Positions 4,184 to 55,254 of a stretch of DNA of 64,000 nt are shown piece by piece (within the stretch, counting starts at the first letter, position 1; every line of letters starts with the position of its first letter). The stretch covers positions 118,496 to 182,495 of the forward strand of contig CATXCY010000001.1 in the NCBI GenBank assembly GCA_958366945.1, in the 5' to 3' direction. The stretch is from an uncultured bacterium. GTDB lineage: Bacteria > Vulcanimicrobiota > Xenobia > Xenobiales > Xenobiaceae. The position numbers were made by a program, and so were the translations under genes. The notes beneath the pieces were generated by a model. The model made no database searches and was not told the origin of the DNA. It saw only the letters and a program-made list of their open reading frames with translations.

Positions 4184-4293
4184 ACTGTCCCGCGCTCAAA
4201 AGATAGGCTTCAAACTAAATTCAATTCTAACCAAGAAGGCTGCTATTTCTAAGGCAGGGTTTCCTTTTCCCCTATACGAAGGGCTTTGCACTC

Positions 4294-5373: not shown

Positions 5374-5409
5374 TTCCATTTTGAAAAAGTATTCGCCTAT
5401 TGTAAAGCT

Positions 5410-17319: not shown

Positions 17320-18912
17320 ATGGTGAGGCACGGATTAGGCATTGCCATCTTTTCAGTTCTATCAGCGGTATCTCTCTCAGTAATCGGTTGCGGAGGCACG
17401 GGCAGCGGTATGGGCGTATTGGATCCCTTCCCTACCGGTACTCACTCAACTCCCACAGGAACTTCCACTCCAGTTCCTCCAACTCCCGACGATCCTAACG
17501 ATAAAGCCTACGATCTCGTCAATACCAGCGATCTTCGCAATCCAGTTTACCAATACGTAGACGATAGCAATTATGTTTACACTGTCCAGGGCTTCACTGT
17601 CGGCGGCGCCGGCATGAGCGATCAGCAGTGCAAATACAGGCTTTTGAAATATAGCACTACCGACAAAGAGGCCGAGCCTCAAGAAGTTACTATCGAAATT
17701 CGTAACGGTAATGGCTATAGCAAAGGCGACTTAGCTAACCCATACTATATCACTGGTATTATTGACAGCATGGGCACTGCAGATGACAAAGCAGACGACC
17801 ATCTCTATTTAGCCGTTACCGATTTGGGTACTACCAAAGCTGTCTATTTGATGGATCTTGGTGCTCGCAAAGGAGGCTGGAACAAGGCTAGAGCCGTCAA
17901 CATATTTGATTGCGGAACCAATTTAGCGGCGACTTGCCCTCTGACTTGCTCATTTGGCAGCAGCAGTTTCAATCGCGGAGAGGATGCCATTAACACTCTG
18001 TTCTATACCGATTATAAAGAGAATGGCTCAGTTAAATTTGTCGCTTTTGATGAAAAGATCTTCGATAATGGTAGACTAGCAGATCTGAGTGGCAACCTTA
18101 CCAATTGCGGTAATGTATTTGCCTTGCCCTTAAACTACCCAGCCGTAGTAAAAGCTAGCGAAGGACCTTGGGCAACCGTAACTTGCCAGGGAGACAGCAA
18201 AATTTACTTCTTCGCCAACAATAATAGCTTGACAGCTTTTAGAGGCGATAGTAAATACCCGTTGGCTGACACCGCCAAAAAATACGTAAACTACATTCAG
18301 CCTGAAGACAAAAACATTGATTTGCAAAATCCCTACGATTTTGCCTGGACTTCCGGCGTAACTGACAACGATGGAGAGGACAACCAGTACCTTACCATTG
18401 CTAGCGGTTTTGCTTTGGATAAATATGGCAAAGCCAGTTCCACTTACGACAAGGGCGCTCTCTGGATCTATAAATTTGATAGTAAGTATGCCGATAGTTT
18501 GCAAAACTTGCGTAATAACGACGGCGAATACACTCTTATCCTTAACAAATTGCAATATCCCATCAATGTAGCCTTTACTAATCCTTTGGATCAAAGCGAC
18601 AAACGTTACTTAGATATTGCCTATTTGACTACCGGAACCAGCACAAATTACAACGTCAAAGATTTGCAAGGTACGCTTAGCTTCTGCCGCTACGATGCTA
18701 AGAGCAAAAAGATCGTCAACAAGTCTGATGTTGATCTCTTAGAAAAGATCGTCGATCCTTTCGGCTTGGTAGCTCTTCCCGGCGCCTTAAAGGAAGGATC
18801 TTATCCCGTTCAGTTCCTGTTTACCACCCACTGGAACTGGGGCAGCGTCTTTACTGAAAAGAGTCACATCTACTCTTACAGCAAAGATATTGATTTAGAA
18901 GCAGGCAATTAA
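17320..18912 (+). CDS. Putative lipoprotein of unknown function.
   Basis: Signal peptide with lipobox-like Cys (LSVIGCGG), then a Thr/Pro-rich linker, then a 480-aa domain. AGGAGG Shine-Dalgarno. Confidence 0.5.
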   Translation: MVRHGLGIAIFSVLSAVSLSVIGCGGTGSGMGVLDPFPTGTHSTPTGTSTPVPPTPDDPNDKAYDLVNTSDLRNPVYQYVDDSNYVYTVQGFTVGGAGMSDQQCKYRLLKYSTTDKEAEPQEVTIEIRNGNGYSKGDLANPYYITGIIDSMGTADDKADDHLYLAVTDLGTTKAVYLMDLGARKGGWNKARAVNIFDCGTNLAATCPLTCSFGSSSFNRGEDAINTLFYTDYKENGSVKFVAFDEKIFDNGRLADLSGNLTNCGNVFALPLNYPAVVKASEGPWATVTCQGDSKIYFFANNNSLTAFRGDSKYPLADTAKKYVNYIQPEDKNIDLQNPYDFAWTSGVTDNDGEDNQYLTIASGFALDKYGKASSTYDKGALWIYKFDSKYADSLQNLRNNDGEYTLILNKLQYPINVAFTNPLDQSDKRYLDIAYLTTGTSTNYNVKDLQGTLSFCRYDAKSKKIVNKSDVDLLEKIVDPFGLVALPGALKEGSYPVQFLFTTHWNWGSVFTEKSHIYSYSKDIDLEAGN

Positions 18913-40414: not shown

Positions 40415-40491
40415 TGGTGGACGAGAACGGACTCGAACCGCCGACCCCCTGCTTGTAAGGCAGGTGCTCTAACCAACTGAGCTACTCGTCC
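40415..40491 (-). tRNA. tRNA-Val (anticodon TAC).
   Basis: Cloverleaf reads GGACGAGTAGCTCAGTTGG..CTTACAA..GGTTCGAGTCC with encoded CCA. Confidence 0.85.
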
Positions 40492-40584
40492 AAAAAAAAG
40501 AGAAGCTTTTCAGTAAACGCTGTCTAACTAAATCAGCCTCTCATTCTATTTAACCGCCTTCCCTATGAAGGACAGTGTTTTAAG

Positions 40585-40661
40585 TGGTAGCCCGGACGGG
40601 AATCGAACCCGTGATCTCCGGCTTGAAAGGCCAGCGTCCTAAACCGCTAGACCACCGGGCC
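40585..40661 (-). tRNA. tRNA-Glu (anticodon TTC).
   Basis: GGCCCGGTGGTCTAGCGGTTAGGAC, anticodon loop CTTTCAA, GGTTCGATTCC, CCA. Confidence 0.85.
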
Positions 40662-40693
40662 ATGTACACTTTTCTTGAACACCAAGGGGGTCT

Positions 40694-40769
40694 TGGTGGG
40701 CCCACCTGGATTCGAACCAGGGACCAATTAGTTATGAGCCAACTGCTCTAACCGCTGAGCTATGGGCCC
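40694..40769 (-). tRNA. tRNA-Met (CAT). Elongator type; a lysidine tRNA-Ile2 cannot be excluded.
   Basis: GGGCCCATAGCTCAGCGGTTAGAGC, anticodon loop CTCATAA, GGTTCGAATCC, CCA. Confidence 0.8.
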
Positions 40770-40965: not shown

Positions 40966-42261
40966 CTAAAAGTTGATGTAAAGCTGAGCGCTTTGCAAAG
41001 CTGCCAAGTGATTTTCCAAGCCAAAATAGTTTTCACAAGCGCGGGAAATTTGCTTAAGCTTATAGCGGCGCTTGGGAGCAACAAATACATAAAAGCGCCA
41101 TAAATTGCGATGCTTATCACGCAAGACATTTACTTCCGGCAATTGCAAAGAAGCTAATGAGCACGGTTCTTCTGGCCCTATTTTAACCAGAACTTCAGCT
41201 TCTTTTAATTGCATATTGGCTGAAGGGCAGTAAATAATTAGCTCTCCGGGATCTAGACCAAGATCGCTAATCAACCTCTCTTCGGCTTCTTTGCGATATT
41301 CAGCTTTATTGTGGAAACGCTCTACCAGCTGGGCTTCCTTTTCATAGCCAATGCGTCTAGTTAAAACGTAAGCACGCTTGTAAATTTTGCGCGAGCTAAA
41401 AGCTTTATAAATGCTAGCTATCAAAGGATCATCGCCAAAGTGCCACTCAATATAGGCTAAAAGACGCTCGTCGCCCAAAGGCAAAATATCTTTAAGTTTC
41501 AGCCCAAGTTCTAAAGCACGTTCTACAATTCTGGAGATCATAGCTCCGGAAGCGGTTTTGGTATGGTGGAAGAAAACGCGTTCAGTTAAAAAGTAACGTA
41601 AGCGCAATAAGTTAATAACTTCAGAAACTAAATCTTCTCTAACTACGCCATTTTTTTGGCAATCTAAATACAAGTGGCTGCCGTCAGTGCGCAAGCTGCG
41701 CATAATGCGCTTATCATATTTCTGAGAAAGACCACAAAAAAAAGCGTCGCGAGCTAAATAATCCAAAAGATCGGCACAAAACATACCGCCAATAAGCTCA
41801 CTTTGCCAAGCTTTTTCAGCCTGCCCGTGAAGAATAGCTTTTACAAGTTCGGCTATAGCCAATTTATGAAGTATTTTGCCTAGCTCAGTGCGCTTATTAA
41901 AAAAAAGCTCAAAACGCTCTGGTGAATCGTGGCGGCTAAAAATGCGCCGTTCATCTTCTACGGTATGACCAAAGGGAATATGACCTACATCATGCAAAAG
42001 AGCAGCCGCACTCACAGCTAACCTTTCGAAATTGCTTATCTTGGTACCAAATTCTTCCAAAATTTTTAGAAGAGTAAGAGCCAAGTGGCAAGTCCCCAGG
42101 CTATGCTCAAAACGAGTGTGAACTGCTCCAGGATAAACTAAAGAAGCCGTACCTAATTGCTTTATGCCTCGAAGCCTTTGCATTTGAACTGTATCTATAA
42201 GTTCAATTAACTCATCAGGCAAAAAAATATCTTCGTGTACAGGATCTCTGAATATTTTCAA
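40966..42261 (-). CDS. HD-domain dNTP triphosphohydrolase-like protein (SAMHD1/dGTPase family).
   Basis: N-terminal DPVHEDIFL...QRLRGIKQLG...YPGAVHTRFEHSLGTCHLA...LLHDVGHIPFGHTVED, the characteristic HD motif. 431 aa. Confidence 0.8.
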   Translation of the reverse strand: MKIFRDPVHEDIFLPDELIELIDTVQMQRLRGIKQLGTASLVYPGAVHTRFEHSLGTCHLALTLLKILEEFGTKISNFERLAVSAAALLHDVGHIPFGHTVEDERRIFSRHDSPERFELFFNKRTELGKILHKLAIAELVKAILHGQAEKAWQSELIGGMFCADLLDYLARDAFFCGLSQKYDKRIMRSLRTDGSHLYLDCQKNGVVREDLVSEVINLLRLRYFLTERVFFHHTKTASGAMISRIVERALELGLKLKDILPLGDERLLAYIEWHFGDDPLIASIYKAFSSRKIYKRAYVLTRRIGYEKEAQLVERFHNKAEYRKEAEERLISDLGLDPGELIIYCPSANMQLKEAEVLVKIGPEEPCSLASLQLPEVNVLRDKHRNLWRFYVFVAPKRRYKLKQISRACENYFGLENHLAALQSAQLYINF

Positions 42262-42264
42262 AGT

Positions 42265-42744
42265 TTATTCTTCGTCTTCTCCGTCATCTTCTTCGCTAAG
42301 CTCACCAGAGTAGATAGACACTTCACGGATCATACAATCTAACTGAGCCGCGCTAAGCTGACTAACTGGACATGCTGCTTGTAAGATAACATATTCGCAA
42401 TCGTCGCCCTTACTAATCATTAAGCGACTATAAATGAGGTTCTGGTCGCAGAAGCGCAATAATTCAGCCGGATCCAAATCTTCGCTGTATTCACCAATTT
42501 CAGCTTCTACTACTACAGCTTCGGCTTCATGGTACATGGCATCGTCGACATCGACCATGAAAACATCTACTTCAGGCTGATCATCCTGATAAACGCGGAA
42601 AACATTTTCTTCCGGAATCCATTCGGCTTCCATGTGCTCATCATGATATTTGGCGTAAACAATGAGCTCATCCATTAAATTGTTAAGATATTCCGGGGCC
42701 TCTAAAGACTCTTCTTCAGGATTTACAGCTTCAGGATCGGTCAT
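42265..42744 (-). CDS. Small highly acidic protein (YbjN-like?), translationally coupled upstream of the HD-domain gene.
   Basis: 159 aa with pI clearly acidic (many D/E; C-terminus EEDDGEDEE). Only a 3-nt gap to the HD-gene start, so likely an operon. Confidence 0.45.
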   Translation of the reverse strand: MTDPEAVNPEEESLEAPEYLNNLMDELIVYAKYHDEHMEAEWIPEENVFRVYQDDQPEVDVFMVDVDDAMYHEAEAVVVEAEIGEYSEDLDPAELLRFCDQNLIYSRLMISKGDDCEYVILQAACPVSQLSAAQLDCMIREVSIYSGELSEEDDGEDEE

Positions 42745-42861
42745 AAGAAAAAACTCCTAAATACAGGCGGAAGTTTGCCGGAAAAGGCTCCGCCTTTGAC
42801 AAAATTGTGCCGTTCCTAGTTCTATTAGGGTTACTCTTTCACCTTTTATAGCGCCCCAATA

Positions 42862-42906
42862 GAAAAAGGCTGCTGCCGAGAAAGAAGATAACTCGGCAAC
42901 AGCCTT
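42862..42906 (-). terminator. Terminator hairpin for nuclease paralog 1, on the minus strand.
   Basis: AAGGCTGCTGCCGAG...CTCGGCAACAGCCTT with a flanking A/T run. Confidence 0.4.
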
Positions 42907-42962
42907 CAATAAGCTATAAAGTTTCGATCTTCCGCAGCAGCAACAGACTGAAACCTTGTTGC

Positions 42963-44042
42963 TTACTTGTCGAGACCCTGAGGGGCAAAGTCATTTTCAG
43001 CAGTCAAACGCACTGGCTCTTTGGTAATATCGCCGATATTGCCAAAGTGCAAATCAGTCATTTGTTCAAGCTGCTTCTGAGGAACCTGATAAACGCTGAA
43101 TTTATCGGGATCGAAGCCAGAAATACCTAAAGTATGATCGCTCTCAATGATGTCTTTCTGAGAAAGTACAAAGGAAGCGCTCTTTAAGTTGCCAGTTTTC
43201 TCGTCAGCCCAAACTACAGTTTTGAAGAACTGCATAGGAATCTGAACGGGCTTCTTCATGGCTCCGTTGTTGGTGAACTTAGGATCGTCATCAGAGAAGA
43301 TGGGGCCGGTGATTACGGTCATCTTCTGATTACCGCTGGTAGCACTGTCGAGAACATGATTTTCCAAGTTTAACCATTCTTTTTGGTTTAAACCGGCATG
43401 CTGTAAGGTAGCGTTGCAATAGCTAAAAGTATCATTATTAGCTTGTTTGGCCTCTTTACCCCAGCAAGGATCTAAGCGGCGCACCATGTGGCCCTTATCG
43501 ATATCATTGTTCCTGTAAGCTTCGTTGCCCAACTGGCATTCGCGGGGAATACGACCATCGAGTTCCCATTTGCCGCTGCGGGGCAAGTCTTGGTGAGTAG
43601 CACCATCGATATTGGAAATGGTGTAGAAGCACTGTTTGCGCTCACCATTCATAACGATGGAGAAGTGAGTATAAGGTAAAACATACTCGCCAGGCTTGTC
43701 GGTACGCATAGCCACTTTGTCTTTAATGGAACTGCCCAACTCGGGAAGAGGAAGCTCTTTACCTAAGAAAGAGCTGTCATAACCGGCACGATTGCGATAC
43801 ATGTTGACGCCGTCGCCTTGGACAGTGATGGGGCCCTCAGCCTTTTGGGCTTGAGCACTGGCGTGGCTCTTGAAAAGTCTGCCGGCGCTGGCAAAGGCTT
43901 GCTCGTTAGCGAAGTCTCTGTTGTCGTCATGGACGAACACATCCTTGCTGCTTCCCTGGAAGCCTTCGGGACGGCTGACAGAATTTTCAATCATCTGAGG
44001 ATTGTTAAATAACGAGCTGCTAGAGATACTGTTAATTCCCAT
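42963..44042 (-). CDS. DNA/RNA non-specific endonuclease (EndoG/NucA family), paralog 1 of 6.
   Basis: Start refined to ATG 44042 (MGINSISSSS) with GGAG upstream; tracker ORF extends to 44159. Catalytic DKGHMVRRLDPCWG (DRGH-type His-Me finger) and NATLQHAGLNQKEWLNLENHV (Mg-binding Asn/Glu). Confidence 0.8.
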   Translation of the reverse strand: MGINSISSSSLFNNPQMIENSVSRPEGFQGSSKDVFVHDDNRDFANEQAFASAGRLFKSHASAQAQKAEGPITVQGDGVNMYRNRAGYDSSFLGKELPLPELGSSIKDKVAMRTDKPGEYVLPYTHFSIVMNGERKQCFYTISNIDGATHQDLPRSGKWELDGRIPRECQLGNEAYRNNDIDKGHMVRRLDPCWGKEAKQANNDTFSYCNATLQHAGLNQKEWLNLENHVLDSATSGNQKMTVITGPIFSDDDPKFTNNGAMKKPVQIPMQFFKTVVWADEKTGNLKSASFVLSQKDIIESDHTLGISGFDPDKFSVYQVPQKQLEQMTDLHFGNIGDITKEPVRLTAENDFAPQGLDK

Positions 44043-44496
44043 TTTTATCTGCTCCATTACCGAAGCCTGCTTCGCCTTAAAGCAGGCTAAATTCCTGATT
44101 TTAAATGCCTTACACAGACAAAATATCTTCAGGCGTGACATGCTCCTTAAGCTTAACAAAATTTGCTAAACTTAAGGCTTCTGAGATGTTGATGAACCGC
44201 ACCTCCAAAAAATTTGAAAGTACAAGCTCTATCTTAGTAGGTGATGTCCCACCTACATGCTGCTCAGCTTCAAAGTTCCCTTGTATGCAATGATACAAAG
44301 AAAAATATTGGAGCTAAGTAACGTTTTATATAATCTTTTCCTCCCCTTTCTCCTAAATATTAGCAGTCAATTAGGCAAAAATGTTCCTTTTTTATGAACT
44401 TTTAGTTAACGTATCAAAAAATGAGCCGTCTGCTGCAAAATATTTTTACAGCGCGGCCCATCTATATTTACCTAATATGTAGCTAAGTTAAATACT

Positions 44497-45603
44497 TTAG
44501 CTGAGTTTAGGAGCGTAATTGTTGTCAGCGCTTAAGCACATAGCTGTTTCGGTAATATCGCCGATATTGCCAAAGTGCAAATCAGTAAGACGCTCGACTT
44601 CTTTCTGCGGCACTTGATAAATTTTAAATTCACCGGGATCGAAGCCTTTGCCCTTATTCTTCTTAGCTTTAAAGAGAGAGCTATCATTATTGATAATATC
44701 TTTTTGAGAGAGAATAAAGGAAGCGCTCTTTAAGGTGCCTTTTTCATTCCAAACTACAGTTTTGAAAAACTGTAAAGGAATTTGGGTAGCTTCTTTCATG
44801 GCGCCTTTATTGTCGAACTTCGGATCGTCATCGGCAAAAATAGGGCCAGTAATTACAGTCATTTTTTGACCGGAACCGCGAGCTGAATTTAAAACGTGAT
44901 CTTCTAAACGCAACCACTCTTTTTTATTGAGACCAGCGTGTTGTAAAGCGGAGTTGCAATAGCTGAAAGTATCCTCACCAGCTAACTTGGCATTTTGGCC
45001 CCAACAAGGATCTAAGCGACGCACCATGTGACCGCGATCAATGCTATTTCCGCCGTAAGCTTCGTCACCAAGCTGATATTTGCGAGGAATGCGGCCATCT
45101 AAAGTCCAGGTACCTTCACGTTTTACGCTGCGAGAAGCTCTACCATCAATATTACAAATAGCGTAGAAGCATTGCTTGCGCTCTTTATTCATTACTACTG
45201 AATAGTTGGTGTAAGTAAGCTCACACTCACCAGGCTTATCGGTGCGCATAGCCACTTTATTCTGAATGGAAGAACCTAAGCCGGGCAAAGGAAGTTCTAC
45301 GCCCAAGAAAGATTTGTCGTAGCCGTTGCGCCCCTCAAACATGCTGACAGGCTCGCCTTGCACGGAGATCAAAGAAGAAGCGGAATTAGTTTGTTGAGCT
45401 TCGCGACCACAACTTTGGAAAAGACGACCAGCCTTGGCGAATTCTTGCTCTTTAGTAAATTGAGCGCTCTCGTCACGAACAAAAACATCTTTGCCCGTAC
45501 CCTGAAAGCCTTCAGGACGGCTGACACTATTCTCAGAGACCTGAGTGTTAATATATAAAGAATTGCTGGAAATGCTGCCTATTCCCACTGAAAATAGCTC
45601 CAT
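44497..45603 (-). CDS. EndoG/NucA-family nuclease, paralog 2.
   Basis: MELFSVGIGSISSNS...; DRGHMVRRLDPCWG; NSALQHAGLNKKEWLRLEDHVL. GGGGGGAG Shine-Dalgarno. Confidence 0.8.
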   Translation of the reverse strand: MELFSVGIGSISSNSLYINTQVSENSVSRPEGFQGTGKDVFVRDESAQFTKEQEFAKAGRLFQSCGREAQQTNSASSLISVQGEPVSMFEGRNGYDKSFLGVELPLPGLGSSIQNKVAMRTDKPGECELTYTNYSVVMNKERKQCFYAICNIDGRASRSVKREGTWTLDGRIPRKYQLGDEAYGGNSIDRGHMVRRLDPCWGQNAKLAGEDTFSYCNSALQHAGLNKKEWLRLEDHVLNSARGSGQKMTVITGPIFADDDPKFDNKGAMKEATQIPLQFFKTVVWNEKGTLKSASFILSQKDIINNDSSLFKAKKNKGKGFDPGEFKIYQVPQKEVERLTDLHFGNIGDITETAMCLSADNNYAPKLS

Positions 45604-45643
45604 TGTTCTCCCCCCACTGTAATATATGCAAAGTTCTCTATTT

Positions 45644-45683
45644 CAAAAAAAGCTGCTCGACTTATTAAAATCGAGCAGCTTTC
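45644..45683 (-). terminator. Rho-independent terminator downstream of paralog 3.
   Basis: AAAGCTGCTCGA...TCGAGCAGCTTT flanked by an A-run (U-run on the minus strand). Confidence 0.55.
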
Positions 45684-45703
45684 TACTCAGCTAAAACAAA
45701 ATG

Positions 45704-46822
45704 CTAGCTTAACTTAGGAGCGTAATCGTTCTCGGCAGTTAAGCGCATAGGCTTCTCGGTGATGTCACCGATATTGCCAAAGTGCAAATCGGTCATTTGC
45801 TCGAGTTGCTTCTGAGGCACCTGGTAAACGCTGAAGCGGCCGGGATCTACACCCTTGCTCTTAAAGAGAGAGTGATCTTTATTGATAATGTCTTCCTGAG
45901 AGAGCACGAAAGAGGCGCTCTTAAGCTTGCCACCATCGTTCCAGACCACGGTCTTGAAGAACTTCATGGGGATCTGGGTAGCTTCTTTCATTCTGCCCTT
46001 GTTGTCAAACTTAGGATCGTTTTCAGAGAAGATCGGGCCAGTGATAACGGTAAGTTTCTGCTTTTCTTTGCCAGTAGTGGCGCTGTCCAAAACGTGGTTT
46101 TCTAAGCAGAGCCATTCTTTTTGGTTCAAAGCACCATGCTGCAAGGTGGCATTGCAATAGCTGAAAGTATCACGGCTGGCGCGCAGAGGATCGTCGCCCC
46201 AGCAAGGATCTAAGCGGCGCACCATGTGGCCCTTATCGATATTGTTGCCGCCATAAGCTTCGTTGCCCAACTGGTATTCACGAGGAATACGACCGTCGAT
46301 AGTCCAGTTGCCATCGCGCTTTACTTCCTGGTGGCTGTTACCGTCGATATTGCAAATAGCATAGAAGCACTGTTTGCGCTCTTTGTTCATTACTACGGAG
46401 TAGTTGGTGTAAGTGAGCTCGCTCTTGCCAGGCTCATCGGTACGCATAGCGACCTTGTCTTTAATAGAATCGCCCAAACCAGGTAAAGGAAGATCTACGC
46501 CCAAGAAAGACTTGTCGTAGCCGTTGCGACCTTCAAACATGTTGACGCTCTCGATATCGACACCGGAAGCGGCAGACATAATATTGGTTTGCTGAGTCTC
46601 CTCAGGATTGGCTTGAGGCTGAGCCTCGCGCTGGCAGCTTTGGAAAAGGCGACCGGCCTTAGCAAAATCCTGCTCTTTGACAAACTGAGCGTTATCATCG
46701 TGTACAAATACGTCTTTGCCAGTACCCTGGAAACCTTCAGGACGACGAATAGAGCTCTCAGAGATTTGAGTGTTAGTATATAAAGAACTACCAGAAATAC
46801 TTCCGATACCCATTGTGAACAA
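45704..46822 (-). CDS. EndoG/NucA-family nuclease, paralog 3.
   Basis: TTG start at 46822, or ATG at 46813 (MGIGSISGSS). DKGHMVRRLDPCWG; NATLQHGALNQKEWLCLENHVL. Confidence 0.8.
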   Translation of the reverse strand: MFTMGIGSISGSSLYTNTQISESSIRRPEGFQGTGKDVFVHDDNAQFVKEQDFAKAGRLFQSCQREAQPQANPEETQQTNIMSAASGVDIESVNMFEGRNGYDKSFLGVDLPLPGLGDSIKDKVAMRTDEPGKSELTYTNYSVVMNKERKQCFYAICNIDGNSHQEVKRDGNWTIDGRIPREYQLGNEAYGGNNIDKGHMVRRLDPCWGDDPLRASRDTFSYCNATLQHGALNQKEWLCLENHVLDSATTGKEKQKLTVITGPIFSENDPKFDNKGRMKEATQIPMKFFKTVVWNDGGKLKSASFVLSQEDIINKDHSLFKSKGVDPGRFSVYQVPQKQLEQMTDLHFGNIGDITEKPMRLTAENDYAPKLS

Positions 46823-46972
46823 CCCCTAGTTTTCTCCCCACCCCAGACCTTGTTTACCAATAAATACTACAGAATTTAAAATACTATTTGTGCACAAAAT
46901 TGTAACAAGCTTGTCAAATTTTCATTTAAAGTCGCATTTTTTAGTTTGTAGCTTATGATTAAGCTCCAGAAC

Positions 46973-47020
46973 AAAAAAAAGCGCCTTGCTCTTTATTTTT
47001 TCAAGAGCAAAACGCTTCTC
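46973..47020 (-). terminator. Rho-independent terminator downstream of paralog 4.
   Basis: GCGCCTTGCTCTT...AAGAGCAAAACGC with an A8 run. Confidence 0.55.
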
Positions 47021-47038
47021 ATCTAAATGCTCAGTTCC

Positions 47039-48226
47039 TTACTTATCTAAACCTACGGGAGCATAGTTATTTTCTGCAGTCAAACGCACGGCTTTTTTGC
47101 AAGTATCGCCAATGTTGCCGAAATGCAAATCGGTAAGGCGCTCAACTTCTTTTTGAGGCACTTGATAGACATCGAAACGGCCAGGCTCAAAACCGCCTTT
47201 AAGCTTAATGGTGTCATCTTCTTTGATAATATCTTCCTGGGAAAGAATGAAAGAAGCGCTCTTTAAATTGCCAGTTTTTTCGTCGGCCCAAACGACTGTT
47301 TTGAAGAATTTCATAGGAATCTGGGCAGGCTCTTTCATCTTGCCATTATTGTCGAACCAAGGGTCGTTCTCGGAGAAAATAGGGCCAGTAATTACACTCA
47401 TCTTTTGACCGCTGGCAGAATTGAGCACATGGTCTTCTAAAGCGAGCCATTCATCTTGGTTTAAACCGGCATGTTGCAAAGAAGCGTTGCAATAGCTGAA
47501 AGTGTCACGGCTAGCTAATTCGGCATTGCTACCCCAGCAAGGATCTAAGCGACGTACCATGTGGCCCTTGTCGATATTGTTGCGTTTGTAAGCTTCATCG
47601 CCCAATTGGTATTCACGAGGAATGCGGCCATCTAAAGTCCAGTTGCCGGAACGCTTAACAGCGTGCTGGCTATTACCGTCGATATTGCAAATAGCGTAGA
47701 AGCACTGCTTGCGCTCTTTATTCATTACTACGGAGTAGTTGGTGTAAGTAAGCTCGCTCTCGCCGGGCTTGTCAGTACGCATAGCCACTTTATCTTGAAT
47801 GGAAGAGCCAAGTTGAGGCAAAGGAAGCTCGGTACCTAAGAAGTTTTTGTCGTAGCCATTGCGACCATTAAACATACTGACTTTGTCGCCTTGAATTGTA
47901 ACTACACCAGAAGCGGAATCAGCTTGCTGAGATTCGCGATTCCCACTTTGGAAGAGACGACCAGCTTTAGCAAAGTCCTGCTCTTTAACAAACTGAGCAT
48001 TATCATCATGAACAAAGACATCTTTGCCAGTACCCTGGAATCCTTCAGGACGGCTGATAGAGCTTTCAGGAACCTGATTATTTATATACAAAGAGCTGCC
48101 AGAAATACTTCCGATACCCACAGTAAACGACTCCGATTTTTTCCCCGCCCCAAAACTTTCTAACTCAGTAGATACTACAGAATTTAAACGACTGGTTAGG
48201 CACAAAAATGTAACAAAATTGACCAA
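47039..48226 (-). CDS. EndoG/NucA-family nuclease, paralog 4.
   Basis: Likely true start is GTG at 48121 (VGIGSISGSS) with GGAG 11 nt upstream; the tracker ORF begins at 48226. DKGHMVRRLDPCWG; NASLQHAGLNQDEWLALEDHVL. Confidence 0.8.
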   Translation of the reverse strand: MVNFVTFLCLTSRLNSVVSTELESFGAGKKSESFTVGIGSISGSSLYINNQVPESSISRPEGFQGTGKDVFVHDDNAQFVKEQDFAKAGRLFQSGNRESQQADSASGVVTIQGDKVSMFNGRNGYDKNFLGTELPLPQLGSSIQDKVAMRTDKPGESELTYTNYSVVMNKERKQCFYAICNIDGNSQHAVKRSGNWTLDGRIPREYQLGDEAYKRNNIDKGHMVRRLDPCWGSNAELASRDTFSYCNASLQHAGLNQDEWLALEDHVLNSASGQKMSVITGPIFSENDPWFDNNGKMKEPAQIPMKFFKTVVWADEKTGNLKSASFILSQEDIIKEDDTIKLKGGFEPGRFDVYQVPQKEVERLTDLHFGNIGDTCKKAVRLTAENNYAPVGLDK

Positions 48227-48235
48227 AAGAAAAAT
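48174..48235 (-). promoter_or_regulatory. Conserved promoter-like element upstream of the nuclease paralogs.
   Basis: Plus-strand motif TACTACAGAATTTAAA...TTAGGCACAAAAATGTAACAA...TTGACCAAAAG. Homologous copies occur at 46865-46925 and 49587-49650. Sits between each terminator and the next start codon. Confidence 0.4.
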
Positions 48236-48276
48236 AAAAGCGCTCTGGCTTCAATATGAAACCAAAGCGCTTATTT
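48231..48276 (-). terminator. Rho-independent terminator downstream of paralog 5.
   Basis: AGCGCTCTGG...CCAAAGCGCT with an A-run. Confidence 0.55.
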
Positions 48277-48318
48277 AAGCGTGCCGACTACAATGCGGCT
48301 TCCGCTTAGTGATATTTA

Positions 48319-49434
48319 CTAGGCTAACTTAGGAGCGTAGTCATTCTCAGCGGTCAAGCGCATAGGCTGCTCGGTGATGTCGCCAATATTGCCAAAGTGC
48401 AAATCGGTGAGGCGCTCAACTTCTTTCTGAGGCACCTGGTAAACTTCGAAGCGATCGGGATCGAAACCGCCCTTAGCACCTAAGGAACCGTCACCATTGA
48501 TAATGTCTTCCTGAGAAAGGATGAAGGAAGCGCTCTTGAGCTCTTTGCCTTCGGTCCAAACCACAGTCTTGAAGAACTTCATAGGAATCTGGGCCGGTTC
48601 TTTCATCTTGCCATGGTTGTTGAAGGAAGGATCGTCTTTGGAGAAGATAGGGCCGGTAATGACGGTCATCTTCTGGCCTTTAGCAGAATTGAGAACGTGG
48701 TCTTCGAGCTGGAGCCACTCTTTCTGGTTTAAACCAGCGTGCTGTAAGGAAGAGTTGCAATAGCTGAAAGTGTCATGGCTAGCCAAATCGGCGTTTTTGC
48801 CCCAGCAAGGATCTAAGCGGCGAACCATGTGGCCTCTGTCTATATTGTTGTCGGCATAGGCTTCGTTGCCGAGCTGGTATTCGCGAGGAATACGACCATC
48901 GAGGCTCCAGCTGCCGGAACGCTTAACATCGCGATGAGTAGTGCCATCAATGTTGCAAATGGCATAGAAGCACTGCTTGCGCTCTTTGTTCATTACTACG
49001 GAGTAGTTGGTGTAAGTAAGTTCGCACTCGCCGGGCTTGTCGGTGCGCATAGCCACTTTGTCTTTAATGGAATCGCCAAGGCCGGGCAAAGGAAGCTCTA
49101 CACCCAAGAAGGCTTTGTCGTAACCATTGCGGCCTTCGAACATGCTTACGCCGTCGGGCTTAACTTCGCGGGGACCTTTAGGACCGTTAGGGCCTTGAGC
49201 GCCATCATTCCTGCGGCGATTCTTTCTCTTGGCGATTTCGAAACTGTTGTCGTTTACGCTCTGGAAGAGGCGACCAGCTTTAGCAAACTGCTGCTCTTTG
49301 GTGAGCTGAGCGTCGTCGTCATGAACGAATACGTCTTTGCCAGTGCCCTGGAAACCTTCAGGACGTTTGATAGAGCTCTCAGAAACCTGAGTGTTAGTAT
49401 ATAAAGAATTACCAGAAATGCTTCCGATACCCAT
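48319..49434 (-). CDS. EndoG/NucA-family nuclease, paralog 5.
   Basis: MGIGSISGNS...; DRGHMVRRLDPCWG; NSSLQHAGLNQKEWLQLEDHVL. Unique basic linker (RKNRRRNDGAQGPNGPKGP). Confidence 0.8.
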   Translation of the reverse strand: MGIGSISGNSLYTNTQVSESSIKRPEGFQGTGKDVFVHDDDAQLTKEQQFAKAGRLFQSVNDNSFEIAKRKNRRRNDGAQGPNGPKGPREVKPDGVSMFEGRNGYDKAFLGVELPLPGLGDSIKDKVAMRTDKPGECELTYTNYSVVMNKERKQCFYAICNIDGTTHRDVKRSGSWSLDGRIPREYQLGNEAYADNNIDRGHMVRRLDPCWGKNADLASHDTFSYCNSSLQHAGLNQKEWLQLEDHVLNSAKGQKMTVITGPIFSKDDPSFNNHGKMKEPAQIPMKFFKTVVWTEGKELKSASFILSQEDIINGDGSLGAKGGFDPDRFEVYQVPQKEVERLTDLHFGNIGDITEQPMRLTAENDYAPKLA

Positions 49435-49649
49435 GTTTTACAATTCCTATCCCTTTAATTAGGCTTTGCAGAAAACTCTGGTAGTCACAAAAACTGTCAA
49501 AGCTTTCAACGAATCGAGACAAGCCAGCTACTATCTAAAACGCAGACAACAGATACGCTTGCTCAAAAAACATTAACTGAACAGATACTACAGAATTTAA
49601 AAGTCTAATTAGGCAAAAAAATGTTACAACTTGGCCAAAAAACTTTTTA

Positions 49650-49696
49650 AAAATAAAATGCGCTCCAAAGCCAAAGCTTTTGAAGCGCATTCAATT
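49650..49696 (-). terminator. Rho-independent terminator downstream of paralog 6.
   Basis: AATGCGCT...GAAGCGCATT with an A-run. Confidence 0.55.
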
Positions 49697-49716
49697 AGCT
49701 ATTTTATATATAAGAT

Positions 49717-50772
49717 TTAGTTTAACTTGGGAGCGTAGTCGTTCTCAGCGGTCAGGCGCATAGGCTGCTCGGTGATGTCGCCGATGTTGCCAAAGTGCAA
49801 GTCGGTGAGACGCTCAACTTCTTTCTGAGGCACCTGGTAAACTTCAAAGCGATCGGGATCGAAGCCACCTTTAATGCCCAAAGAGCTGTCGTTGTTGATG
49901 ATATCTTCCTGAGAGAGGATGAAGGAAGCGCTCTTGAGCTCTTTGCCATCATTCCAAACTACAGTTTTGAAGAATTTCATGGGGATCTGAGTAGGCTCAT
50001 CCATCATACCGTTGTTATCAAACTTTGGATCGTCTTTGGAGAAGATGGGGCCGGTAATAACGGTCATTTTTTGACCTTTAGCAGAACCGAGCACGTGATC
50101 TTCAAGTTTGAGCCATTCTCTCTGGTTCAAGCCACCATGTTGCAAAGCGGCGTTGCAATAAGTGAAGGTGTCACGGCTAGCCAATTCGGGATCCTTACCC
50201 CAGCAAGGATCTAAGCGGCGAACCATGTGGCCCTTGTCAATATTGTTATCTTTGTAGGCTTCGTTGCCCAACTGGTACTCGCGAGGAATACGACCATCGA
50301 TAGACCAGCTGCCGGAACGTCTGACATTGCGATGGCTGGTGCCGTCAATATTGCAAATAGCGTAGAAGCACTGCTTGCGCTCTTTGTTCATAACGACAGA
50401 GAAGTTAGTATAGGTGAGTTCGCTCTCACCAGGTTTGTCGGTGCGCATGGCAACTTTGTCTTTAATGGAAGAGCCGAGCTCAGGTAAAGGAAGTTCGGTG
50501 CCCAAGAAGTTTTTGTCGTAGCCATTGCGGCCTTCATACATACTGACGCCTTCGATTTCAATTTCGGAAGCGGCATTGACGTGTCCGGCCTGAGTGCTCT
50601 GGAAGAGACGACCAGCTTTAGCGAATTGCTGTTCTTTGGTGAACTGAGAGCTTTCGTCGCGAACGAAGACATCTTTGCTAGTGCCTTGGAAACCTTCGGG
50701 ACGCTTAACGTCGCTCTGCTGGATATTATTAAAGGCAGTAAAAGAACTGCTGGATATGCTACCTAAACCCAT
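49717..50772 (-). CDS. EndoG/NucA-family nuclease, paralog 6.
   Basis: MGLGSISSSS...; DKGHMVRRLDPCWG; NAALQHGGLNQREWLKLEDHVL. Confidence 0.8.
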   Translation of the reverse strand: MGLGSISSSSFTAFNNIQQSDVKRPEGFQGTSKDVFVRDESSQFTKEQQFAKAGRLFQSTQAGHVNAASEIEIEGVSMYEGRNGYDKNFLGTELPLPELGSSIKDKVAMRTDKPGESELTYTNFSVVMNKERKQCFYAICNIDGTSHRNVRRSGSWSIDGRIPREYQLGNEAYKDNNIDKGHMVRRLDPCWGKDPELASRDTFTYCNAALQHGGLNQREWLKLEDHVLGSAKGQKMTVITGPIFSKDDPKFDNNGMMDEPTQIPMKFFKTVVWNDGKELKSASFILSQEDIINNDSSLGIKGGFDPDRFEVYQVPQKEVERLTDLHFGNIGDITEQPMRLTAENDYAPKLN

Positions 50773-50907
50773 TTAGTTAAACCAACCTAGTTTTAGACAT
50801 ATTTCCCCCCTTGCAGCTATACTACACAATAAAAGATGTTTATTATACAGAAACTATTTACAAAAATATTAACATGAGCCCAGAATCCTTTAAAATTAAC
50901 TGTTCGT

Positions 50908-53559
50908 TCAATCGTTATGCCAGCTAGGTTTGTCCATTGCTGGAGACGTCTGAGCCGCTTTAACAGCGGTAGTTTCTTCCAAATTGTTTTTGCTTTCCGC
51001 AACCGAACTATCCATATTGCCTACGTTGGCAGCTCCACTTAGCCTATCGCTAAAAGGAGATTGTGAAGCCGCACTGTCAACTTTTTTGAAAGCATTTTGA
51101 TCAGTTAAGTCGGGAATTTCTATATCTTTTAACTCTTGAGTGTCTTTAGAAGAAACACCTTGCGAAGTTGTAGAAGAAGCGGTAGAACCAAGCTCAGGCT
51201 CGGTGCCATTAGTGCTAATGAACTTATCGGCTCCCTTATTACCAAGACGCTTTGAATAGTAGTAGGAAGTTACCAAAAGAGCCACGCCCAAAACGAAGAA
51301 AAGCAGCAACTTATAGACGATAGGCAAATTTATAATATCGTAAGTAATTACTCTAAGCAAAGTAACACAAACGATAAAAATACCACAGTTGGTGATATAA
51401 CGATTCTTAAAGCGAATACCACCCCAAAGGATTGCCGCTGCGTAGAGCATCCACAAAACAGAAGTAATAGAACTTAAATGGCAAACTGCGGCAATATTAT
51501 GTCCTTCTATATGAACTAAAGACCAGCCACTAAGCACAGCTCCAACCAGATAAATTTCAGATCCGTAAAGTACAAAAGCGGCAGCTAAAGCCAAAATAGT
51601 TAAAGCGTGAGCTAAAAAGCCGATATTAACTATAGGAATAAATTCGGCATAAGTACCTGTAATGCAACTAAGAATATTGATAGTCAAGCCAAATAAAGAC
51701 AGAGCCAAAGCCAAATTGAAACCAATGGCAAAAGCATTGCTCTTAGCCTTTTTGGCTTGAAGCATAGCTTGCAAAGCATAAATAGAACAAACGGCCACTA
51801 AGCTAAAGCAGCTAAAAGCCCACCACTGTTGACCATTTAAACTCAAAACGCGATCTAAAATATCGGCTAATTCTCGACCAAAATAAATATAAGCTAAGGT
51901 TATACCAGCCCAAAGGTTGAAATCTCTGTATTTTTCATCACCATTGTAGTGACGGAACATTAAATAGCCAAACAGCCAAGCAGCAATAGAAACTCCGAAA
52001 ATAATTATGGCCAGCTTATGAAGTTCTCGATCAGGACTTAAGAAAAAGTCAAATTTGCCATTAAAGTCGGCCACTAGCATAATGAAAAAGGCCAATACAT
52101 TATGCAAACCGCTCCAGAAGAAGAGGCGTCGTTGCACTTCCGGCTTGACAACTTTATTAAAAGCAATCCAAAGAATAACTAAACCAGCTATAGAGAGGAA
52201 AATAACTCTGGACAATGGCTCTTGGAAGTTGTACGCAGAAAGACCGACCACAAATAAGCCAGCATTGACAAAAGCTCTAGCTAAAGTGTTCATATTTTCT
52301 GCACGCAATTTGGCTAAGCCAAATAAAGCCACCGCAGCCATCATAAAAGCAGCAAAGGCTTGACCTTCACTGTAAATACAATTGGCTCCCAAAGCCATTA
52401 TTAAATGGTTAATCCAAACGGAAGGCTGCTTAGGATTATTTTCGTCTTGGCGGCGGAAGTAATCGTATATCAAGACGATAAGCCAGATGGCTCCCAAAGC
52501 ATAAGGGCTAAAAATTCGGTCAGCCTTTTCGAAAATGCCAGTTCGGGTAGCAATAAAAAGCCAGGTTATAGCTAAGTTGATACTAAAAAGTGAATTCCAC
52601 TTCTGGCAACGCACAGTACCTATTAAACAAAAAAGAGCCAGAATTACTAAATAGACATCAAAAACATAAGTACTGTCGATAGAAGTTTGAATAAAAATTA
52701 AGTTGGCATAACCAGCCAAAGCTCCCAGACAAATAATGGATTTGCGTTGAGCCCAATAAGCCAATACATAAGTGCCCAACAAAATAAGTGAAGCCAGAGC
52801 CAAGCTTACGTAATTATCCCAAAGATCAAAGTAAACGCTGCCAGCATAAGTTACCATGATAGCCGAAGCTAATCCCAACCCCAAAATGGTTTCGGAAAAG
52901 CCGCGCATATTGTCTTTAGGCAAAAGATAAAAACCTAAGCCCACAAGCACCGAGCTCAAAGCATAGACCGCGCCAACCTTCATAGCTGCAGTCAAAGCCA
53001 AAAATGGGGATAACCACTTTATGAAGAGGATGACAAAGACGATAATAGCCAGAGCGCCTAATTTATTGAAAAGGCTGCCCAAGAAGAATTGCTCTAAGTT
53101 GCTTTCAGTTTTGGGCTGAGAGGCAACCGTTTTTTGCGCATATAGCCTAGCTTCGTGCGTAGGCGCAGCCGTCGGCGCTGAATTTGTAACAACGTTAGGC
53201 TCAGCAAGTGATATTTTTTCTTTAGCTAACGACAATACTTTTCCAGTAGCCTCTTCAATAGAATCAGCTGCCGTTGGTGCACTAACTGTCCCGTCTAGTT
53301 TATTGTTATCAGCATAAGTAGAAGAAATTGACGATTCGTTTTCTTGTCGACACGCCTTTTGGGTTGAGTCCGGAAGACGTCCGGAAGTGCCGCTAAGGGA
53401 AATAGTCAAATTTTCCAGACCGACTTCAAGCCTCTCTACGCGTTTTTTTAAGCTTTGGCAAGAAGCCATAGCTATAATAGAAAAAATAAATGGCAGGAAA
53501 AATATTCCTAAAGCCGCGAGCACCAACACAATAAATTCCAATTTTGCACCCTTCCCCAA
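50908..53559 (-). CDS. Large polytopic membrane protein (DUF2339-like).
   Basis: 883 aa. N-terminal TM, a short coiled coil (KKRVERLEVGLENL), a Ser/Thr/Ala-rich linker, then ~20 TM helices. Confidence 0.5.
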   Translation of the reverse strand: MGKGAKLEFIVLVLAALGIFFLPFIFSIIAMASCQSLKKRVERLEVGLENLTISLSGTSGRLPDSTQKACRQENESSISSTYADNNKLDGTVSAPTAADSIEEATGKVLSLAKEKISLAEPNVVTNSAPTAAPTHEARLYAQKTVASQPKTESNLEQFFLGSLFNKLGALAIIVFVILFIKWLSPFLALTAAMKVGAVYALSSVLVGLGFYLLPKDNMRGFSETILGLGLASAIMVTYAGSVYFDLWDNYVSLALASLILLGTYVLAYWAQRKSIICLGALAGYANLIFIQTSIDSTYVFDVYLVILALFCLIGTVRCQKWNSLFSINLAITWLFIATRTGIFEKADRIFSPYALGAIWLIVLIYDYFRRQDENNPKQPSVWINHLIMALGANCIYSEGQAFAAFMMAAVALFGLAKLRAENMNTLARAFVNAGLFVVGLSAYNFQEPLSRVIFLSIAGLVILWIAFNKVVKPEVQRRLFFWSGLHNVLAFFIMLVADFNGKFDFFLSPDRELHKLAIIIFGVSIAAWLFGYLMFRHYNGDEKYRDFNLWAGITLAYIYFGRELADILDRVLSLNGQQWWAFSCFSLVAVCSIYALQAMLQAKKAKSNAFAIGFNLALALSLFGLTINILSCITGTYAEFIPIVNIGFLAHALTILALAAAFVLYGSEIYLVGAVLSGWSLVHIEGHNIAAVCHLSSITSVLWMLYAAAILWGGIRFKNRYITNCGIFIVCVTLLRVITYDIINLPIVYKLLLFFVLGVALLVTSYYYSKRLGNKGADKFISTNGTEPELGSTASSTTSQGVSSKDTQELKDIEIPDLTDQNAFKKVDSAASQSPFSDRLSGAANVGNMDSSVAESKNNLEETTAVKAAQTSPAMDKPSWHND

Positions 53560-53761: not shown

Positions 53762-55012
53762 TTAGGCGTTAATTCCGTGGCACTTTTTGAACTTTTTGCC
53801 ACTGCCACAAGGACAAGGATCGTTGCGACCTACTTTAGCCTGAGCATAAGGATTGACTAAGCTCAAAGCTTTACGGAACTCTTCGTTGTTAGGCTCGAAG
53901 CCACAAGCACGATAGAAAGCGGCGGCAGCTTCTTGCTGCATGCCAGCAGTCAAATAAACCCAACCGGCGGAAAGGTAAGGATAACCGTAACCGCGATCGG
54001 ACTCTACGCCTTTAGCAACTTCTTCTTTAGCTTCGTCAATTTTGCCACCCCAAGCCAGAACAGCAGCCAAATTCAAGTGAGCTAAAGATTTCTTCTGGCC
54101 ATTTTCTACGATCAAGTATTTGCTGAAGCCTTTATCGCGATACTTATCGTTGGCCTGAAGCAAGAACTCAACAGCTCTGGCCTGAGGATAGGCTTCCAAA
54201 AGTTCGGCAGCGCGACGCAAGTACTTTTCAGCTTCTTCCAAGCTGTCTGTTAAAGCATAAGCTACACCGATATTCAAGCAAACTAAAGCCAAATCATCAT
54301 CATTGATGTGCTTGGCTTCAATTTCTTCCATGGATTGCTTCAAATACTTCATGCCGTCTTCAACTTGGCTGTTAAGCATGAGCATAAAGCCGTAGTTGTT
54401 AAGTACCAAATAATGATGGCACTTTTCTTCTTCGATGCCAGCTTTGTAAACTTCCAAAGCAGCGAGCAAACCTTTGCTACCATAAGCCATAGTAGCGCGG
54501 TGCATAATAGCCGGAGCCATTTCTTCGCTTAAACCGAGCTCACGGAAGAATTTGCAACTATCATCATATTCGGCCATAGCGGCACGGGATTGGTTGGCGT
54601 CTACATAAAGGTTGCCCATGTTGCGGTGGCCGCGTCCCTGACCAGCCTTGTCGCCAAGTTCAGTCCAAATGGATAAAGCTCTGGAATAATGGAAGCGAGC
54701 TTCGTCCAAACGGTTGCGCTGATGATAAGCGGAGCCCAAATATTCATCGGCTTGAGCCATAGCTTCTTGATCATTTACCTTTTCGGCTTCAGCGCGACTG
54801 CGGCGGAACTGAATAATAGCATCATCCATTTTGCCTAAGCGGGAGAAAGCAACTCCGCTAAGGTGGTAAAGGCGAACTAATTCTTCGGGCTGAGAAATTT
54901 CTTCTTTAGCCAAGCGAGACAGTTCTTCTGAAGCTTCAGCGTTTTTCTGAGCATTTAAAAGCTCTTCGACGTTGTCGAGAGCGGCACTGAGATTTACGGC
55001 GGTATCTGACAT
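53762..55012 (-). CDS. TPR-repeat protein with a C-terminal SEC-C zinc-binding motif.
   Basis: Start refined to ATG 55012 (MSDTAV) with AGGAG 6 nt upstream; tracker ORF extends to 55078. C-terminus [17 protein letters not shown] is a SEC-C motif. Confidence 0.65.
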
Positions 55013-55254
55013 TGAGACTCCTATTGTAAGTTGCGGACTTTTTCTGCGATATTTATAAGCCATGCCCGCATTTTTCAAACTTCGAAGCCCGATTTTTCCC
55101 CTCTATTTTCTTTTATCCTGCTTGAATACTACTACTGAGAGTATGGCACCTAAGCAATGCTCTTTACTGCCACAAAAAGTGAATTTATATCGAATAATTT
55201 GCTAAGATGCTGGCCCTAAAAAAAATTTGCCACCAAGCATAAAAAGGGACTATA

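Follow-up and report, generated by a model that had tools for sequence, protein, structure and literature searches.

Which protein does a small, extremely acidic polypeptide serve when its gene lies between that of a putative nucleotide-pool enzyme and a tandem array of nucleases? The question is raised by a 64,000-nt stretch of DNA (the window, by which we mean the whole stretch) from an uncultured bacterium of the class Xenobia in the phylum Vulcanimicrobiota, which we take to be the group formerly named UBP9/Eremiobacterota. A first-pass annotation of this DNA drew attention to a gene for a 159-aa acidic protein and a gene for a 431-aa HD-domain protein resembling deoxynucleoside triphosphate (dNTP) triphosphohydrolases, lying between three tRNA genes and six nuclease genes. 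It was speculated there that the acidic protein is an inhibitor of the nucleases or that the two genes form an anti-phage module. Here we describe the acidic and HD genes as a conserved two-gene operon, part of the core chromosome in a gut-associated member of Xenobia near Candidatus Bruticola, and we argue, at about even chances, that the acidic protein is a protein-binding partner of the HD enzyme. Compared loci from genomes and metagenomes are denoted by L-numbers and proteins of the acidic family by P-numbers.

Organization of the acidic/HD operon

The acidic open reading frame (ORF), with its C-terminus EEDDGEDEE, and the HD ORF that follows it 3 nt later have the positions and sequences first described (Table 1). 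At their junction, GAA TAA ACT TTG, the stop codon of the acidic gene and the start codon of the HD gene are in the same frame, and the earlier impression of a tight operon with apparent translational coupling is borne out. The placement of the pair was described less accurately. The tRNA genes and the nuclease genes do both adjoin it, but the former are downstream of the HD gene, and the latter come before the pair as transcription runs, with a terminator in between. This terminator is a hairpin with a 16-bp stem and an 11-nt loop followed by UUUUUCU, whose calculated folding energy is -31 kcal/mol (z = -4.5; none of 200 shuffled sequences was as stable). Because the hairpin would end the transcript of the last nuclease gene, the acidic/HD pair is predicted to be a transcription unit of its own, separate from the nucleases.

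The ORF that precedes the HD gene stops 2-4 nt, sometimes 18-44 nt, ahead of the HD start, and the tight cases use TTG. The 2-4 nt gap and the TTG start are seen in L005, L007, L017-L023, L086 and L087, and also, behind a third small ORF, in L028, L029 and L084, while the HD gene starts with ATG where the gap is wide (42 nt in L012 and 116 nt in L004). This pattern of spacing and start codons fits translational coupling in which the acidic protein would be made first. The third small ORF is 74-95% conserved among five loci and absent from the window. Its product, for which Pfam gave no significant match, contains what may be a Cys/His zinc ribbon (HSC...CNECGGH) and carries the acidic tail EPEDDDETDEE, and 4 nt separate its stop codon from the HD start, TTG; in the UBA6111-like genomes that carry it, the chaperone-fold protein described below is without a D/E tail of its own.

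Conservation of the pair across genomes

One genome per GTDB species was scanned with an alignment of the HD protein, which gave 67 loci, and each locus was then searched with hidden Markov models for the acidic protein, the HD protein and the nuclease. Seventeen species representatives have an HD protein at least 57% identical to that of the window, and the acidic gene lies directly upstream on the same strand in 15 of them; of the other two, one (L033) has the HD gene at the very start of its contig, and the last (L024) is considered below. No acidic gene was found within 10 kb at any of the 50 loci with an HD protein of 52% identity or less, which include other Xenobia and Vulcanimicrobiota metagenome-assembled genomes (MAGs), Planctomycetota, WOR-3 and Acidobacteriota. 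Exact-protein look-ups and a metagenome scan added L004, L009, L012 and L084-L087, all of which are pairs; the metagenome scan, made with a narrow alignment of the acidic family, returned four loci, every one a pair.

The genes outside the pair vary, being those of a nuclease, a DUF2339 protein, a TPR/SEC-C protein or a transketolase on one side and of a tRNA, a nuclease, a DUF4013 protein, a pilin or a lactamase on the other. Adjacency, strand and near-zero spacing nevertheless persist where identity has fallen to about 60% in the HD protein and about 35-40% in the acidic protein. Since the pairing outlasts both the change of outer neighbors and this divergence, we argue that the HD protein is the ancestral client or partner of the acidic protein.

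The nucleases are far less constant. Six stand beside the pair in the window and its nearest relatives, four in L022 and L023, two in L001 and L025 (one on each side) and in L007 and L026 (with other genes interleaved), one in L005 and L030, and none in L004, L009, L012, L027-L029, L031, L032 and L084, judged on the DNA available (up to 10 kb). A 159-aa ORF beside a nuclease in L007 was compared with the acidic protein and is unrelated. The pair thus occurs with no nuclease in the available DNA at no fewer than nine loci, namely, five species representatives and four further loci. In these lineages the TPR/SEC-C gene, on the other strand, precedes the pair by 0.2-2.3 kb, and in Bruticola-like lineages the DUF2339 gene and the nucleases lie between the TPR/SEC-C gene and the pair. 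The first-pass annotation had reasoned that the pair would be ordinary housekeeping context if relatives kept it in place without the array and if the acidic protein neither bound nor inhibited the nucleases; the genomic half of this proposition is what we observe: no fewer than nine loci keep the pair at this place in the backbone and show no nuclease in the available DNA (up to 10 kb).

The acidic protein and its fold

The acidic protein contains 46 Asp and Glu residues against six Lys and Arg residues, giving a net charge of -40 in 159 aa, and its isoelectric point is the lowest among the 44 window ORFs of at least 150 aa. Residues 1-12 and the D/E tail (residues 153-159) are predicted to be disordered. 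We obtained no significant match to it in Pfam, NCBIfam, PADLOC or, with phmmer, the PDB sequences, and a profile of 20 family sequences likewise found nothing significant in the PDB. In particular, the window protein had no Pfam match at E <= 0.1 and so fell short of the gathering thresholds of YbjN (PF10722) and CesT (PF05932). Sixteen clusters match it in an index of 5.8 billion proteins, the best of them carrying the name Candidatus Bruticola sp. (Vulcanimicrobiota, class Xenobia). The family is tiny, with 24 proteins at E < 1e-3 in a profile search of 1.84 billion representatives.

An AlphaFold2 model built from 12 sequences (mean predicted local distance difference test score, pLDDT, 79; predicted template modeling score 0.72) runs in the order helix, four strands, helix, two strands, helix. 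All of the top 44 Foldseek matches to this model belong to one superfamily, that of the type III secretion class I chaperones and YbjN, and the acidic protein shares with this superfamily both the compact alpha-beta-beta-beta-alpha-beta-beta-alpha arrangement and the small (about 120-160 aa), acidic character. Sub-threshold Pfam matches among 20 family members point the same way (best E values CesT 0.002, YbjN 0.016 and CesT_Tir_1 0.023, in one member each), the CesT match belonging to a single distant member. Taking these results together, the acidic protein, as modeled, founds a new small sequence family within a known protein-binding fold. Proteins of this fold bind other proteins, usually as dimers.

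One distant family member, P0026 (137 aa; L014:2637-6648), lies between an 840-aa protein with a weak match to NolX, which is associated with the type III translocon, and a 356-aa deaminase with weak matches to the toxin-type deaminases MafB19 and Bd3614; its gene overlaps that of the deaminase by 4 nt. The arrangement looks like that of a chaperone with an effector.

The speculation that the acidic protein is a DNA mimic protecting the cell from its nucleases, as NuiA does for NucA in Anabaena, is not supported. The two systems agree in that Endonuclease_NS nucleases and a small acidic protein are encoded near each other. The acidic protein has no match to the NuiA family of Pfam (PF07924), its predicted fold is the type III chaperone/YbjN fold whereas that of NuiA is PR-1-like, and in its local context its gene tracks the HD gene and not the nucleases, as the nuclease-free pairs illustrate.

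The HD enzyme

Pfam identifies an HD domain (E = 1.1e-8) and an HD_assoc_2 domain (PF19276; E = 2.4e-14, 53.7 bits against a cut-off of 23.1) in the HD protein. Its matches in the PDB are 2hek (4e-30), EF1143 (2o6i; 1.3e-29 over residues 2-252) and 2q14 (4e-28), and SAMHD1 follows at about 1e-21. The motifs RFEHSLG, LLHDVGHxPFxH and DxxDYLARD align residue by residue with EF1143, 2hek, 2q14 and SAMHD1, reading RFEH53SLG, LLH90D91VGH94IPFGH99 and D164LLD167YLARD172 in the window protein, and the positions of the H...HD...D metal ligands and of the DYLARD motif are invariant in seven orthologues. The earlier recognition of a SAMHD1-like HD dNTPase is thus upheld by domain matches, structures and motifs alike, and by homology the HD protein would be a dNTP triphosphohydrolase of the SAMHD1/EF1143 type with intact catalytic motifs. 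It shares with SAMHD1, EF1143 and COG1078 proteins the HD plus HD_assoc_2 architecture and the metal-binding and DYLARD motifs, but it has no SAM domain.

The models of defense enzymes describe it poorly. The antiphage dGTPase model NF041026 scored 19.6 bits against a cut-off of 400 and TIGR01353 32.5 bits against 152, and PADLOC gave a single local match of 57 residues (47-103) around the HD motif. Like the Dgt-type anti-phage dGTPases it is an HD-superfamily enzyme that probably hydrolyzes dNTPs, but it differs from them in belonging to another HD subfamily and in its fixed core-genome position. Because homologues of 40-52% identity are spread across many phyla, the HD protein seems to be an inherited enzyme of the nucleotide pool and not the product of a mobile defense gene.

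Selection and recombination

Substitution rates were compared between the two genes of the window and those of L017-L023 and L027-L031. In nuclease-bearing genomes the ratio of nonsynonymous to synonymous substitution rates (dN/dS) is 0.008-0.031 (about 0.016) for the acidic gene versus 0.042-0.056 for the HD gene; in nuclease-free UBA6111-like genomes it is 0.078-0.285 versus 0.092-0.169. Correspondingly, the ratio of amino-acid distances, acidic over HD, is 0.06-0.72 in the former and 0.85-2.14 in the latter. Measured against the TPR/SEC-C gene, the HD protein of the nuclease-bearing clade evolves somewhat faster and the acidic protein more slowly. Both genes are real and under purifying selection. 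The clade-specific shift in constraint on the acidic protein is also real, yet it concerns one clade and is effectively one event.

We relied on dN/dS because mosaics distort the raw identities of the closest genomes. Between positions 33000 and 53600 the window and L021, a MAG from the Hadza gut, form a recombination mosaic with blocks of 98-100% nucleotide identity, which cover most nucleases, the 5' part of the acidic gene, MTAP and GlnRS, and blocks of 77-88%, which cover nuclease 6 with the end of the DUF2339 gene, the 3' part of the acidic gene with the HD gene, and the DnaX region.

The nuclease array

Signal peptides are absent from all six nucleases, whose first 60 or so residues are conserved among them. 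The family motifs are M-[GI]-x-x-IS ... RPEGFQG..KD.FV.D ... AGRLF at the N-terminus and LTAENDYAP at the C-terminus. The ORFs between the paralogs are all short (<=62 aa), and three of at least 50 aa that were considered as hidden immunity genes are broken by stop codons in close relatives, in agreement with the first-pass view that no immunity ORFs are interleaved. Four of the six genes (nuclease 3 to nuclease 6) share an upstream promoter-like block with the pattern TTGACA/TTGGTC ... TTTTGTGC.TAA..AG....TTTAAATTCTGTAGTAT, and terminator-like hairpins occur within the array, one of them with a 16-bp stem at 48272-48238, which suggests that the unit of duplication included a regulatory region. 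Nucleases with this N-terminus are also found in places that lack the acidic/HD pair (L088-L091 and L034), as a tandem pair between GroEL and AlaRS, singly beside YqeC, and 4 kb from a partnerless HD gene. A structure model of the nuclease is poor overall (pLDDT 60), so that the still lower confidence at its N-terminus (residues 1-97 below pLDDT 50) says little about whether that region is disordered or docks on the catalytic domain. From gene content and predicted signals, the array appears to be a later, variable and separately transcribed expansion beside an older acidic/HD pair.

Interpretation of the acidic/HD pair

We consider it an even call that the acidic protein physically binds the HD dNTPase and affects its activity, regulating or holding the enzyme. 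The acidic protein would be translated first, and with the weak TTG start of the HD gene lying 3 nt past its stop codon, synthesis of the HD protein would be slaved to that of the acidic protein, probably at a lower level; the order of the two genes may be likened to that of antitoxin-toxin operons. Binding of the acidic protein would then restrain or tune dNTP hydrolysis, possibly by covering a basic surface that binds nucleic acid or nucleotides, or through control of oligomerization. For partners that are not secreted there are precedents within the fold: DR1245 binds the SSB-like protein DdrB (PMC3575483), AmyR/YbjN works by protein-protein interactions (PMC5398634), and CesT bound to the non-secreted regulator CsrA (PDB 5z38) is among the Foldseek matches.

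Five observations weigh against this interpretation. In L024, whose HD protein is 72% identical to that of the window, a different gene is upstream and the acidic gene is missing. In the nuclease-free UBA6111-like lineage the third ORF, of about 112 aa, intervenes between the acidic and HD genes, so that direct coupling of the two is not universal. None of the distant family members P0020, P0022 and P0026 adjoins an HD gene, and the HD protein is therefore not the universal client of the family. The mean net charge of the HD protein is practically equal in clades with and without the partner (+1.8 versus +1.6), and no electrostatic sign of a complex was thus found. Finally, the acidic protein is far more constrained than the HD protein in the nuclease-bearing clade, and a role directed at the HD protein only does not account for this.

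The last observation also bears on the leading alternative, in which the acidic protein serves the nucleases, binding their conserved, signal-less and probably disordered N-termini either to keep the enzymes inactive inside the producer, in the manner of an immunity protein, or as a pilot for non-Sec export, with its place beside the HD gene being historical. Effector chaperones, whose fold the acidic protein is predicted to have, are as a rule encoded beside their clients, and class IB type III chaperones serve several effectors. The six nucleases, lacking signal peptides and immunity ORFs and sharing their N-terminal region, would suit such a role, as would the poorly modeled residues 1-97, and a distant relative, P0026, has a protein with weak likeness to NolX on one side and a toxin-like deaminase on the other. 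Moreover, constraint on the acidic protein tightens sharply only where nucleases are present, which lends some support to a functional tie between them within that clade. We nevertheless regard this as a minority reading, and an unlikely one, because the pair persists at no fewer than nine loci with no nuclease in the available DNA (up to 10 kb), nucleases with the same N-terminus do without the pair, a terminator stands between the acidic gene and the array, type III secretion genes were not found in the window, the shift in rate amounts to one event in one clade, and the low-confidence N-terminus belongs to a model that is poor throughout.

A related proposal, which we think improbable, would give the acidic protein of the Bruticola-like clade several clients: as a "safety catch" it might bind both the dNTPase and the conserved nuclease N-termini and keep the nucleases harmless or export-competent. 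If true, this would account for the roughly six-fold drop in acidic dN/dS, relative to the nuclease-free clade, where nucleases accumulate, and it would place a type III-chaperone-like immunity or secretion adaptor in the phylum of Xenobia, in which we know of no injectisome.

Returning to the HD enzyme, it is similarly improbable, and a weaker reading than one with nucleases as clients, that the two proteins have no specific link, the acidic one acting broadly in stress or regulation, like YbjN, and sharing its promoter by chance with a housekeeping dNTPase. The YbjN family is pleiotropic and ill defined (PMC5398634), distant members of the acidic family are found in unrelated contexts, and the HD gene of L024 manages without the acidic gene. 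Mere neighbors, however, would hardly keep adjacency, strand and spacing through the divergence and change of outer neighbors described above, and the coupling to the HD start survives even in the genomes with the third ORF. Least probable is a nucleotide-depletion anti-phage module such as the first-pass annotation suggested, in which we would cast the acidic protein as a labile, antitoxin-like inhibitor whose loss at infection would free the dNTPase and starve the phage: the order of the genes and the weak, coupled start recall antitoxin-toxin operons, SAMHD1 and bacterial dGTPases do restrict viruses through dNTP depletion, and the HD gene lies in a divergent recombination block between near-identical genomes, but the antiphage models fit the HD protein badly, PADLOC has no match to the acidic protein, the pair keeps a fixed housekeeping-backbone position in all species and not one in a variable defense island, an HD dN/dS of about 0.05 gives no sign of an arms race, and the divergent blocks also span ordinary genes such as DnaX.

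Genomic context

The three tRNA genes had been pointed out as a classic site for the integration of islands, but a genomic island at this site is not supported. The neighbors in the window are housekeeping genes (DnaX, RecR, GlnRS, MTAP, alanine racemase, EF-G and GAPDH-PGK-TPI). GC content stays between 0.38 and 0.48 across the region without a step (the window ranges from 0.38 to 0.54), and no integrase was found in the flanks scanned. Genomic islands normally lie at the 3' end of a tRNA gene; here it is the 5' side of the minus-strand tRNA genes that faces the pair and the array. The backbone, from the TPR/SEC-C gene through the pair to GlnRS, is common to relatives, the pair holding the same position on it in all species, and L007, which has two nucleases, carries a tRNA cluster Met-Glu-Val-Glu between the HD gene and GlnRS. 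Housekeeping neighbors, flat GC content and the 5' position relative to the tRNA genes together argue that the locus is ordinary backbone, the array being its later variable neighbor.

Table 1. Positions of the genes and signals discussed (window coordinates unless a locus is named)
Feature	Coordinates	Strand	Remarks
Acidic-protein gene	42265-42744	minus	ATG start, 159 aa
HD-protein gene	40966-42261	minus	TTG start, 431 aa; HD + HD_assoc_2
Spacer ACT between acidic TAA stop and HD TTG start	42262-42264	minus	3 nt
Predicted intrinsic-terminator hairpin	42860-42907	minus	3' of last nuclease gene, before acidic gene
Six tandem Endonuclease_NS paralogs	42963-50772	minus	Pfam E 1e-36 to 4e-43
Individual nuclease genes	42963-44042, 44497-45603, 45704-46813, 47039-48121, 48319-49434, 49717-50772	minus	Conserved MG/VG-IGSIS starts used
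Shared promoter-like blocks	46850-47038, 48230-48318, 49440-49716, 50780-50900	minus	Upstream of nucleases 3-6
tRNA-Met(CAT), tRNA-Glu(TTC), tRNA-Val(TAC)	40415-40769	minus	Downstream of HD gene
DUF2339 membrane protein	50908-53559	minus	Pfam; upstream of nuclease array; backbone marker
TPR + SEC-C protein	53762-55078	minus	Pfam; backbone marker
Third small ORF	L028:9658-9996; L027:3425-3763; also L029, L031, L084	plus (L028)	

No secretion-system genes, of type III or otherwise, were found among about 40 window genes scanned. In L024, just downstream of the HD gene (L024:3105-3767, minus strand), there is a fragment that resembles the C-terminal domain of FlhA/SctV, judged by eye from the translation; if this reading is right, at least a flagellar-type export system would be present in the clade. 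The TPR + SEC-C protein matches several PADLOC models ("E2" and PDC-S12) only through its C-terminal SEC-C motif of 20-35 residues, and these matches are probably motif-level artefacts that do not mark a defense gene. Elsewhere in the window, five large ORFs (382, 659, 359, 694 and 530 aa; 1105-7494 and 17320-18912) have no Pfam match at E <= 1e-5. AT skew is unusually high (0.2-0.3) at 1-4 kb, and also in the DUF2339 gene at 51-53 kb. A 935-aa ORF (61180-63987, minus strand) has a partial tRNA-synt_His-like match over residues 23-229 and no annotation outside it, and is far longer than HisRS or HisZ.

Comparison with known systems

The closest likeness to the acidic protein is offered by the YbjN-fold proteins that do not serve secretion, such as E. 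coli YbjN, Erwinia AmyR, Deinococcus DR1245, Synechococcus Tll0839 and the Pseudomonas DUF2170 protein BacA (PA14_16140), which are likewise small and acidic, are found in injectisome-free contexts and act through protein binding. The acidic protein stands apart from them in several respects: its sequence matches neither PF10722 nor any chain in the PDB significantly, it is far more acidic, with its D/E tail, and its gene stands in a fixed operon with that of an HD dNTPase. In the library searched, no paper was found that connects YbjN or this fold with dNTP triphosphohydrolases, and searches on Xenobia, UBP9 and Bruticola returned nothing relevant. The class I type III chaperones (CesT, SycH, SycT, SpcU, ExsC, SicP, Spa15/InvB, ShcA and VecA) resemble the acidic protein in fold, size (about 15 kDa), acidic isoelectric point and the position of the gene beside potential clients; unlike them, it lies in a window in which no type III secretion genes were seen, and its conserved neighbor is an enzyme of cytoplasmic type, not an effector. 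We know of no SAMHD1, EF1143 or COG1078 enzyme with a dedicated operon partner of chaperone fold, and the acidic/HD gene pair is real and apparently not described before.

Biological significance

To our knowledge, bacterial SAMHD1-like dNTPases are thought to be under nucleotide control alone. If the acidic protein does bind the HD enzyme, a dedicated protein partner, translated together with it, would add a new level to the control of the dNTP pool and would provide a handle for studying these dNTPases. Within the type III chaperone/YbjN superfamily, the little-understood branch outside secretion would also gain a clear case with a defined enzyme as its neighbor. The six-nuclease array, for its part, is a recent, dosage-like expansion of a dispersed family of signal-less nucleases, and the missing signal peptides pose the puzzle of how the cell tolerates or exports these enzymes. 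For Xenobia, a gut lineage that is uncultured and nearly devoid of functional annotation, the pair offers a concrete, testable lead.

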